Shown in pieces: positions 32,817 to 42,831 of a DNA stretch of 64,000 nt; the first letter of the stretch is position 1, and each line of letters opens with the position of its first letter. Source of the stretch: Octopus vulgaris. Lineage: Eukaryota. The notes below the pieces were generated by a model. It saw nothing but the letters and a program-made list of their open reading frames with translations. It made no database searches and had not been told where the DNA came from. Made by a program: the position numbers and the translations under genes. The DNA lies in the NCBI GenBank assembly GCA_951406725.2, contig OX597819.1, positions 119,040,001 to 119,104,000 of the forward strand, given 5' to 3'.

Positions 32817-33451
32817 GCATGTATGTATATATCACGTACAGTATTTTCCTAAATATGTAATCTTTCTATCATTATGTCTCTTTCGATATAGATTTCATTG
32901 TTGCTTTTTCACAATTTCTTTCTTTTTGCAGTTTATTCCTCTCCCTTAGTTACATGATCCTACTGCTTATTCCCAATGATTTTTATCACTTAGTATCTTA
33001 GAGTCATCTATTTGCTAAATAACGAACCGAAGCTTAAATGGAAATTCACTGTAATCACGTTACTATGGAAGGACAGTAAATAAAATTTTATAGGCTATGG
33101 ATATAACGAAAAAATTGAATTGCAGAGAAACTTTACTTAAGGCTCAAATATGGCTTCGTGGTTAGGAACTTTACTTCGCATCCACATGGTTTTTAGGTTG
33201 TAAGTACTGCCGTACACCTTAGGCATGTGTTTTCAACCATAAAACCTTCCTAGACAAGAGCTTGTTATAAACATTATAAAGTGAATCGCAATCCCGGCAC
33301 ATTATTTTCTCTCTCCTTTTTTTTTTATTCCCTTTCAATTTTCTTCCCACTCATTCATTTCTATCGAGAATCAAAGATTTTTCTATTCTTCCCGAGCAAA
33401 AAACTAATACACCTGCTTGTTGTCTTTCGTTTTCTGGGTACTAGAGGTATG

Positions 33452-33542
<91 letters not shown>

Positions 33543-34163
33543 CTTCTGTATTGACTGCTTTCCACCACTTTGATCTGTTTTTTGTATTGAATACGTATCG
33601 CCACCGTGGGCCACTGCATCGAACACTTTGAACATATAGCATGATTGAACTTACTTCAAACTATATATCAACTATACATGAACTCTAAGATGTCTGACTC
33701 CGTTGTGTATTATAAATGAATTTCTTGTGTTTGACGGCATGAGCTGTCTTTTTTTATATATAACTTTTTTTGATAAGGTTCATTTCAGGAACTGAAACAT
33801 GTTATAATGTATATATAAAAATTAAAAATTGTATAATATAGCAGCATTTTCGAACTTCATTTTTTACAAATATATACCTACTCGTATACGAGCTAATCCT
33901 ATTATAAATATAAATATATATATATATATATATAATTAATCAATATAGGGTGGCAAAAAAAAATTTTGTAGAATTATTTTGCCACCAGCGGCCTAATGGG
34001 AAAAAATTAAATAGTCATAGACCATTTTTAAGTTCAACATCAACAATCAAGGAACGGCCATAAAAGGCCATTCACCCACTAGAAATAACAGCCAAAGCTT
34101 CAACCGCAAATAAAAATTAATTCCGTAAACCAGGAGAAAATTTAAAAAAACATTTACCCTGTA

Positions 34164-34270
34164 ATTTCTTATACGATATACCGTTTCATCTGCTGATTAA
34201 TGGTAAACTAACCTGATTAAATTAAATCAAGCCAATCTTCCAAAGGCCCTCAGATTCTTCAGTAAGAAAT
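34164..34270 (-). ncRNA. Type I hammerhead ribozyme (mirror copy of 34870-34976)
   Basis: Reverse complement of the + strand motif. Confidence 0.85.
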
Positions 34271-34869
34271 AGCCCAAGTCGGAACAGATATTTTCACGAG
34301 GCATTTCCGACCTTGCCAAGGTTATATCTGACCTAAAATTTTCAAATCGTCGCACTCGCGCCAAATTTATCGGCAGCAAATAAATATAAGCCGTCGATTC
34401 CATTACGGAATTAACCAGAAAATTCATAATTAATCAATATAGGGTGGCAAAATCAATATAGGGCCTGCACTCCGTTTAAGAAATTACAGGGTAAATGTTT
34501 TTTAAATTTTCTCCTGGTTTACGGAATTAATTTTTATTTGCGGTTGAAGCTTTGGCTGTTATTTCTAGTGGGTGAATGGCCTATTATGGCCGTTCCTTGA
34601 TTGTTGATGTTGAACTTAAAAATGGTCTATGACTATTTAATGTTTTCCCATTAGGCCGCTGGTGGCAAAAGAATTCTACAAAATTTTTTTTGCCACCCTA
34701 TATTGATTAATTATGAATTTTCTGGTTAATTCCGTAATGGAATCGACGGCTTATATTTATTTGCTGCCGATAAATTTGGCGCGAGTGCGACGATTTGAAA
34801 ATTTTAGGTCAGATATAACCTTGGCAAGGTCGGAAATGCCTCGTGAAAATATCTGTTCCGACTTGGGCT

Positions 34870-34976
34870 ATTTCTTACTGAAGAATCTGAGGGCCTTTGG
34901 AAGATTGGCTTGATTTAATTTAATCAGGTTAGTTTACCATTAATCAGCAGATGAAACGGTATATCGTATAAGAAAT
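34870..34976 (+). ncRNA. Type I hammerhead ribozyme with long stem II insert; predicted cleavage after 34968
   Basis: ATTTCTTA CTGAAGA ATCTG-(58 nt)-CAGAT GAAAC GGTATATC GTA|TAAGAAAT: 8-bp stem I, canonical core, near-palindromic stem III, GUA triplet. Confidence 0.88.
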
Positions 34977-35106
34977 TACAGGGTAAATGTTTTTAAAATT
35001 TTCTCCTGGTTTACGGAATTAATTTTTATTTGCGGTTGAAGCTTTGGCTGTTATTTCTACTGGGTGAATGGCCTATTATGGCCGTTCCTTGATTGTTGAT
35101 ATATAG

Positions 35107-35167
<61 letters not shown>

Positions 35168-35168
<1 letters not shown>

Positions 35169-35372
35169 GTTGTATACTGTCAACTTAACGTGACAGTCCC
35201 GTAAATGGAATCACCTCCCCGCTATTTAACCCTAGGAGGCATCGACGCTTCCTGTCGGTTTTGACACATTTCATGTGTCCTTATATTTGGGAAGGGGAGA
35301 CAAGCAGCCCCCACTAGCTTGGGCCTGCACTCCCTTTACGGGACTGTCACGTTATGTTGACAGTATACAACC
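35168..35372. mobile_element. MITE-like element with ~38-bp terminal inverted repeats
   Basis: GGTTGTATACTGTCAACTTAACGTGACAGTCCCGTAAA ... TTTACGGGACTGTCACGTTATGTTGACAGTATACAACC (one mismatch). Confidence 0.8.
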
Positions 35373-36150: not shown

Positions 36151-36807
36151 AACATTCACACACATCTATGTATATATGTTTTAAGTTATCTGTGTCTTTC
36201 ACCGCCCGTCTGCTTCTCTATCTTATTCCTTTTTTACGCAGCAGTTATCTGGAAGGTCGTCAAAAGGGACCGAGAGCGAATGTGGTGGATGTAGAAAAAT
36301 ATATTGAAGATGATTTGCTCAACAAAAAGCATTGAAGACGGGGTCCCACCATCACCATCCCTCCAATGTCTGATACAAGTATCAATGAAATGATAAAATT
36401 TAGGGATAGATGTGTTTTCAACCATAAGACCTTCCTAGTAAAGCGCTTGTTAAAAACATTATAAAGAGAATCGCAATCCCAGCACATTATTTTCTCTCAT
36501 CTTTTCTTTTTTTATTCCCTCTCAATTTTCTTTCCACTCATCCATTTCTTTCGAGAACAGTAGGCTCAAAATATCAAAGATATCTCTATTTATGTCCGTG
36601 TGAGAATAGCCTTCCAAATAACAGAACAAATAGTTTTCATCGAAATATGATGGCAGGTCGAACATAAATGTAGAATCTTCTATAATTAAATAGCAATGTT
36701 GTGTATTTGACTGAAAAAAGGGTATGAAGGATTACTCTGCCACTCTGCTTTCTGCCCGATATACTTAGCAGCCTATATACTTTTTACATGTGTATGTGAT
36801 TGTGTGT

Positions 36808-42375: not shown

Positions 42376-42780
42376 AAATATTAGGGAATAAATCCAAATT
42401 TACAGGGAAAAAAATCAGATTTAGGATTAAATCCAATTTTATAGTAAAATATTATATAATATTAATTCGAGACAAAACCACTATTTTGCAAAACAAACAA
42501 GGAAAGACTTAATCAATACATAACATTTTAATATAAAGTAAAGAAACCGCCACTACAATCGTTTCATGTCGTCAAATGACATTCGTCAGGTGGATTTCCG
42601 ATTTTCAAATCAGTTTCAATTGAAACTGATTTGAAAATCGGAAATCCACCTGACGAATGTCATTTGACGACATGAAACGATTGTAGTGGCGGTTTATTTA
42701 CTTTATATTAAAATGTTATGTATTGATTAAGTCTTTCCTTGTTTGTTTTGCAAAATAGTGGTTTTGTCTCGAATTAATAT

Positions 42781-42786
<6 letters not shown>
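42361..42786. mobile_element. Spacer-less 334-bp palindrome (42453-42786) with a left-arm extension, between TA tracts
   Basis: Dyad centre CAA|TTG at 42619/42620; 167-bp arms with one mismatch seen. Confidence 0.93.
42646..42689 (+). ncRNA. Canonical minimal type I hammerhead ribozyme (mirror copy on - at 42550-42593)
   Basis: CCAC CTGACGA ATGTC ATTTGAC GACAT GAAAC GATT GTA|GTGG; all core bases intact. Confidence 0.9.

Positions 42787-42831
<45 letters not shown>

Follow-up and report, generated by a model that had tools for sequence, protein, structure and literature searches.

Structure of the repeated element

The analysed DNA, hereafter called the window, is a stretch of 64,000 nucleotides of the Octopus vulgaris genome (GenBank assembly GCA_951406725.2, contig OX597819.1, positions 119,040,001 to 119,104,000 of the forward strand). 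It contains an element composed of two head-to-head arms of one 492-nt repeat unit, which are separated by a 24-nt insert (Table 1). The direct repeat within the right arm has a spacing of 492 nt and an identity of 98%, and the left arm is 99% identical to the unit. Stops break every frame in a six-frame translation of the doubled unit. The original prediction of a recent, non-coding insertion with two nearly identical head-to-head arms was thus borne out by the alignments, by BLAST and by the arm identities of 98-99%; the copy in the window is young and its 492-nt unit is protein-free. The full unit folded as a circle reaches -135 kcal/mol (z -3.7, 58% paired), and its linear fold is likewise better than those of shuffled sequences (z -4.5).

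Both ends of the element lie inside (AT)n, and a target-site duplication, which in retrozymes is longer than 4 bp when present, is therefore unreadable. The junction insert is likely a templated end-joining patch, and its match to the MITE, which lies 850 bp downstream, amounts to 17 of 18 nt when extended into the first TA of the right arm. BLAST carries the right arm out to unit base 489 with one mismatch. The right arm had been predicted to start at the ribozyme cut, which is correct within a few bases, the exact base being uncertain because the insert ends MITE-like and shares a TA with the arm. The window also contains a second head-to-head element of another family, and ends related to it were present in several of the loci fetched from the genome.

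Table 1. Position of the element, its parts and its neighbours in the window
Feature	Positions	Strand	Description
Right arm	34477-35100	+	624 nt, unit 1-492 then 1-132 (BLAST and alignment); 34477 is at the predicted cut, 35100 is the short fixed 3' end, adjoining (AT)n
Full unit	34477-34968	+	492 nt; predicted monomer or circle
Left arm	33932-34452	-	521 nt, unit 212 to 492/1 to 238 (alignment, locus L070); outer end is the long (tailed) fixed 3' end, adjoining (AT)n
Junction insert	34453-34476		24 nt; the first 11 nt are a second copy of arm sequence, the other 13 nt match the MITE (at 35321)
Hairpin, then short 3' end	35061-35100	+	Unit 93-132; putative RT start site 1
Hairpin, then long 3' end	33932-33987	-	Unit 184-238; putative RT start site 2
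Tail			Unit 133-238, ~105 nt, bounded by the short and long 3' ends
(AT)n target, left side	33911-33931		
(AT)n target, right side	35101-35131		
Type I hammerhead, right arm	34870-34976	+	Predicted cut after 34968; stem I 34870-34877/34969-34976 (8 bp); CTGAAGA 34878-34884; stem II 34885-34952 (68 nt); GAAA 34953-34956; short stem III with palindromic loop
Type I hammerhead, left arm	34164-34270	-	Predicted cut after 34172 (motif scan)
PLE piece outside the element	33537-33910	+	3' pLTR fragment with tail, 781-aa PLE family
MITE	35168-35372		42-nt terminal inverted repeats; 13-18 nt match the junction insert
Direct repeat flanking the region	33225-33370 and 36410-36557		~90% identical, 3.2 kb apart; probably another interspersed repeat
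Second head-to-head element	42378-42790		Other family; AT-rich ends; ~80-nt tail on left arm; one short-stem type I hammerhead per arm (cores 42589 on -, 42650 on +)

Copies of the unit in the genome

The genome-wide search proposed with the original prediction was carried out in the organism's own genome (2.8 Gb). Exact 492-nt head-to-tail arrays with 98-100% identity and up to ~9 units were found on many chromosomes among the best 40 of 925 candidates. In pattern searches, the intact hammerhead was found 2,362 times, the exact short end 231 times and the long end 816 times, and the reversed-pattern controls for all three gave 0. Start points and permutations were tabulated for 140 loci fetched in three sets, 40 by the full unit, 60 by the short end (from the first 100 listed of 231) and 40 by the long end (from the first 100 listed of 816). 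These comprise 98 clean head-to-head pairs, 31 single arms and 11 complex loci, the last being excluded from the counts; no tail-to-tail pair was found among the 140 except one nested case.

In the 98 clean pairs, 194 of the 196 outer ends adjoin (AT)n. The outer 3' ends fall at two places only, at unit base ~132 (short) or ~238 (long), and one short and one long end were combined in 28/30 pairs of the full-unit set, 40/40 of the short-end set and 26/28 of the long-end set, where one end had been the selection criterion in the latter two sets, so that the other alone is informative there. The centre of the pair differs at each locus, with microhomology overlaps in 59 cases, blunt joins in 4 and inserts in 35. 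Free circular permutation, as first suggested, is thus not what the copies show: longer-than-unit, probably RNA-derived copies do occur, but only the 5' ends vary.

The family therefore consists of dispersed, non-coding copies of low GC content and stable self-paired fold, in tandem units with a hammerhead, by which features non-LTR retrozymes are recognised. An ORF with a telomerase-like RT and a GIY-YIG endonuclease, as in an autonomous Penelope-like element (PLE), was neither present in the unit nor attached to it in the 140 loci. The form of insertion is nevertheless that of PLEs, with an inverted 5'-truncated copy at 98 of 140 loci, two fixed RT starts and a tail at one end only. The inversion, regarded at first as possibly an assembly artefact, is very unlikely to be one, nor is it anything unusual, since it is the standard form of PLE insertions.

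The inverted arm might also be the product of fold-back (snap-back) copying, in which the first cDNA serves as the template and no second priming on RNA takes place. This is unlikely in our opinion, even if near-perfect hairpin junctions with the same start base in both arms occur at seven loci (L137, L143, L148, L163, L191, L199 and L209), as such copying would leave them. The short-end arm is the longer one in 11/28 and 9/40 pairs, each arm of many short pairs has bases that are missing from the other, and fold-back copying gives no cause for a second fixed end. Moreover, two starts have been demonstrated biochemically for a PLE in the available text of PMC11167929.

Two young sister retrozyme families of ~474-475 nt (L265-L294) were also encountered, with 1,830 first-look candidates. 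They share ~71% identity and the two ends with the unit, and their stems I-III show compensatory changes. Unrelated long-stem hammerhead motifs adjoin PLE ends at L079, L082, L230, L252, L296, L325 and L329, several of them head-to-head. Many hammerhead families thus coexist in this genome.

The hammerhead motif and its conservation

The pattern scan detected the type I hammerhead in both arms, as had been predicted, in the order ATTTCTTA, CTGAAGA, 68-nt stem II, GAAA, stem III, GTA, the predicted cut and TAAGAAAT. The covariance-model search, which had been suggested as a check, did not recover it: no Rfam hammerhead matched at the gathering score in the whole window or at E<=5 between 33900 and 43000, and the only Rfam matches over the window, all below the gathering score, were to hairpins and microsatellites. 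The length of stem II is probably the reason for this miss, and the assignment as a putative hammerhead is based on the pattern scan and on conservation.

Among the copies, 58 unit positions are variable, but none of the 11 core positions of the hammerhead. All four bases occur at N7, whereas A or C, twice T and never G were seen at H17, and loop III alternates between TATA, TACA and TGCA. The invariance of the 11 core positions is not significant by itself (p 0.25), whereas none of 33 core-plus-stem positions being variable has a p value of 0.016. Between the unit and the sister families, 97% of the stem cells pair, compared to 29-45% for slid partners, both fixed ends are retained and six stem pairs are changed on both sides, a count that reflects few independent events and is not above the shuffle control (216/500). 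The invariant core and the pairing of the stems across the sister families suggest that the ribozyme is under selection.

The best predicted fold of the monomer lies 3.2 kcal/mol below the active fold, with a pairing probability of stem III of at most 0.08, and two copies of the unit are predicted to be able to form a 12-bp stem III. Such a dimer mode is described for metazoan type I hammerheads (PMC4209133). The available text of a study of Xenopus retrozymes reports 8 of 9 dimers as uncleaved in vitro (bioRxiv 10.64898/2026.07.22.740005), and the PLE of the anole is reported to insert without need for its hammerhead (PMC11167929).

Position of the 5' ends

The inner 5' ends of the arms vary and pile up just 3' of the predicted cut, with 47 of 160 arms ending at unit 1-35 where 13 are expected. 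Of these 160 arms, 94 contributed 31 of the ends in this interval (7.7 expected). As the interval had been picked after examination of the second set, the third set, for which it was fixed beforehand, is the only clean replication, and there 16 of 66 ends fell within it (5.4 expected, p 6e-5). No excess was seen on the 5' side of the cut (unit 470-492, 7 ends and 5.4 expected), and strong hairpins such as that at 184-222 had 5' ends at the background rate. The two arms of a locus tend to stop at 1-35 together (both arms at 11 loci, one at 6, neither at 23; Fisher p 2e-5).

The copies had been thought to begin at their own cleavage site. An exact start is the extreme case, found at base 1-2 in only 3 of the 160 arms, and it is the broader accumulation that stands. 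The starts are most frequent at 5-12 in short-end arms and near 22 in long-end arms. The spread over 1-35 is consistent with trimming at the join, and also with pausing near stem I or the 11-38 hairpin; stops on the first pass and on later passes differ weakly (27/82 and 6/38, p 0.08). Read from the one-sided accumulation of the 5' ends, cleavage by the hammerhead in vivo is likely.

Twin priming of the L1 type on the same molecule was also considered and rejected, as it predicts junctions near the start of the other arm and no such clustering was seen.

Variants within and between arms

The divergence was 0.46% within arms, 0.55% between the arms of a locus and 1.55% between loci, and 11 variants that are rare among loci, found in 9 loci, are common to both arms. 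All 262 captured passes through the cut site are without indel; in the second set, 118 arrivals at base 35 were followed by 87 crossings of the cut. The presence of one haplotype per locus, in all laps and in both arms, fits repeated copying of one circle, as far as can be read from the copies. Gene conversion may also homogenise the arms, and, together with unequal crossover, conversion after insertion could mimic parts of this pattern and of the following one.

L065 and L067, on different chromosomes, share a haplotype in which laps 0 and 5 of the long arm show variant 131T, and in L066 and L034 the two arms carry mosaic variants that are in register. Such mosaics, seen in several arrays, are not predicted by a single monomer circle, and those in register suggest that, at least sometimes, the RNA copied was a multimeric circle or a linear read-through product. 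In the latter case, the template of a PLE-type insertion could have been a partly uncut linear multimer transcribed through existing arrays, and a circle would be unnecessary. We find this rather doubtful, if by no means far-fetched. It would account for the shared 131T and for the mosaics of L066 and L034, and unprocessed RNA is described as the main substrate of the anole PLE (PMC11167929), but a multimeric circle explains in-register variants equally well. Furthermore, locus-rare variants are fixed in every lap at L048, L162 and L063, and since linear copying alone only shortens arrays, such fixation needs re-amplification from one unit. A linear template could also hold alongside the mobilisation of a retrozyme by a PLE.

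In L060, variants with a period of three occur in one arm; a trimer circle was tried as an explanation and fits that arm but not the other. Unequal crossover, which can enlarge tandem arrays, may be reflected there, and one might take the whole family for a satellite or foldback element that multiplied as DNA, or for an artefact of the assembly. This seems to us scarcely credible, because each locus has its own centre yet the same two outer ends, the 5' ends track the ribozyme cut, the core appears selectively conserved and intact PLEs share the form. The genome-wide arrays, the structure of the loci and the single haplotype per locus support what was first proposed, namely that the copies are RNA-derived and those of a retrozyme.

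The stretch or part of it is contained in 20 sequencing runs, none of which is recorded as RNA. In four runs guessed to be RNA, contigs of uncertain kind cover the unit and some of them bridge the cut site; in two of these runs, again with contigs of uncertain kind, the unit is covered and the neighbouring PLE fragment is not. Contigs of run X15, possibly the window's own sample, contain joints between minus and plus arms at many places. Inspection of the unit by eye for an internal Pol III box revealed nothing convincing.

Relationship with Penelope-like elements

Searches with the GIY-YIG family and with proteins, in which the best 150 or fewer of 6,136-32,167 PLE-like candidates per search were scored, yielded five young intact PLE families with proteins of 781, 811, 775, 775 and ~880 aa. 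Intact families among them served as the positive control for the pairing of short and long ends, which was found in 4/4 copies of the 811-aa family classed by script (7/8 by eye), 2/2 of the 781-aa family and 2/2 of the 775-aa family. The tails of the intact local families are 30-40 nt. These forms agree with the available descriptions of a purified PLE that cuts and extends both strands and has two internal RNA starts bounding the tail (Frangieh et al., PMC11167929), and of PLE insertions that comprise partial tandems plus an inverted copy truncated on its 5' side, bear a tail of 30-40 bp on one of their ends and target (TA)n (Craig et al., bioRxiv 10.1101/2021.04.23.441226).

No sequence common to the five young families and the unit or its sister was found, so the search yielded no partner and the link to PLEs is one of architecture. 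A 775-aa family (L335-L354) is very young, with many copies of identical protein over the query. Its pLTR contains a hammerhead-like motif in which CCGAAGA replaces CUGANGA in 21/21 matches, and it ends 137 and 169 nt past the predicted cut. The short-end spacing of 137 nt, compared to 132 nt in the unit, is a lead to the partner and nothing more. The 781-aa family has an RT/GIY-YIG frame with an upstream 479-aa frame (L101-L116), and the motif scan found no hammerhead in it.

The 3' pLTR fragment of this 781-aa family beside the element in the window is likely older, as it is 94% identical to the family. PLE fragments beside copies, here and at L033, L065, L138 and L178, were considered as attached parts and rejected, being separated by (AT)n or distant, and are read as the result of shared targeting rather than attachment.

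The unit might instead be the pseudo-LTR of an unfound coding Penelope element, of which the copies would be the 5'-truncated ends. The insertion form matches that of PLEs, and 24 of 57 Xenopus retrozyme families are reported to match annotated repeats, nearly all of them PLE termini (bioRxiv 10.64898/2026.07.22.740005). We nevertheless judge this very improbable, since the arrays are pure repeats of the unit up to ~9 laps and the unit has no open frame. In addition, none of the arms in the 100 + 40 loci runs on, on its 5' side, into a PLE reading frame, nearby pieces lying beyond (AT)n or at a distance. That the copies are the terminal repeat of a longer coding Penelope element, which would have contradicted the original prediction, was thus not borne out in the 140 loci examined.

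Proposed mode of insertion

Taken together, it is quite probable that the unit is a young non-coding 492-nt non-LTR retrozyme that is mobilised in trans by a PLE and occupies hundreds of (TA)n sites, in the form of two head-to-head arms whose 3' ends are fixed at two places. In such a cycle, the arrays would be transcribed and the hammerhead would cut at GUA, probably as a dimer or with the help of a protein, giving linear RNAs whose 5' end is unit base 1 and, besides these, circles or multimers that are still partly uncut. A PLE-like RT/GIY-YIG protein would then nick both strands of a (TA)n run and begin reverse transcription at two internal sites, bases ~132 and ~238, the nicks and starts being suggested by the footprint of the insertions and the enzyme by analogy of form. 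On a cut linear RNA, both cDNAs would run off at the cut, whereas on a circle or multimer they would read through it for up to ~9 laps. Finally, the two cDNA ends would join by short microhomology or by a patch of templated DNA, as the footprint of the junctions indicates. The copy in the window would thus have one arm from each start site, its right arm having halted at the cut on the second arrival.

More tentatively, and with slightly less conviction than doubt, we suggest that the insertions record the full retrozyme cycle. A PLE RT dimer would prime twice on one RNA, a quarter to a third of the events would stop at the ribozyme cut, and in the remainder both arms would be copied in up to ~9 turns around an RNA circle, monomeric or multimeric. 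If true, this would imply germ-line hammerhead cleavage and rolling-circle reverse transcription, as well as mobilisation in trans by RNA shape without shared sequence, the shape being a hairpin and a short AT-rich end that follows the cut by ~132-137 nt, as is also seen in the 775-aa PLE of this genome.

These findings bear on how animal retrozymes enter genomes and on whether their hammerheads cut in vivo. The link between PLEs and retrozymes has so far consisted of co-occurrence and pLTR homology, and one purified PLE did without its ribozyme. The 492-nt family offers a direct footprint, with twin ends, a one-sided accumulation of 5' ends and one haplotype per insertion. As the RNA is small, its two start sites are exact and intact local PLE proteins are named, the mechanism of mobilisation can be tested in vitro.

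Comparison with known systems

In LINE-1 twin priming, the poly(A) end is used by the first primer, and an internal site that varies is used by the second. Head-to-head arms and microhomology joins are common to both systems, but the unit has no poly(A) and its two sites are both internal and fixed.

Endonuclease-plus PLEs, as described for Poseidon PAc of Anolis (PMC11167929) and for Neptune and Naiad (bioRxiv 10.1101/2021.04.23.441226), resemble the unit in their partial tandems, inverted 5'-truncated copy, tail at one end, targets that are AT-rich or (TA)n, and a pair of internal RT starts downstream of the hammerhead. The unit differs from them by having no ORF, a tail of ~105 nt instead of 30-40, arrays of up to ~9 whole units, and a full hammerhead core with stems I-III instead of the minimal form described for PLEs.

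Animal non-LTR retrozymes (Cervera and de la Pena 2020, PMC7229834; Li, Clavereau and Pollet 2026, bioRxiv 10.64898/2026.07.22.740005) are, in the accessible text, like the unit non-coding tandem repeats a few hundred bases in length with one type I hammerhead. Likewise, they have a GC content below 45%, occur as dispersed monomers to multimers with a stable self-paired fold, and share their genome with PLEs. The unit had been considered long for the class, and it does exceed the 170-400 nt of the invertebrate circles tested (PMC7229834). This view has to be given up, as 492 nt is not exceptional among published retrozyme consensus lengths of 51-972 bp; the same source already proposes origin from and mobilisation by PLEs (bioRxiv 10.64898/2026.07.22.740005).

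The published animal retrozymes are described as tandems, whereas two-armed insertions, two fixed ends, (TA)n targeting and 5' ends clustered at the cut are found here; the words 'inverted' and 'microsatellite' have no occurrence in PMC7229834. Stem II has 68 nt in the unit, compared to ~4 bp and a small loop in the published descriptions. Homology to the pLTR of local PLEs is reported for published retrozymes, and the unit is without match to the five young PLE families. Circles and cleavage have been demonstrated for published retrozymes, whereas for the unit they are predictions. In the main texts of the open-access literature, no report of cephalopod retrozymes or of two-armed retrozyme insertions was found. 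Judged against this literature, the 492-nt unit represents a new family of animal non-LTR retrozyme. The class being already known, it serves well as a test case and is not an element of a new kind.
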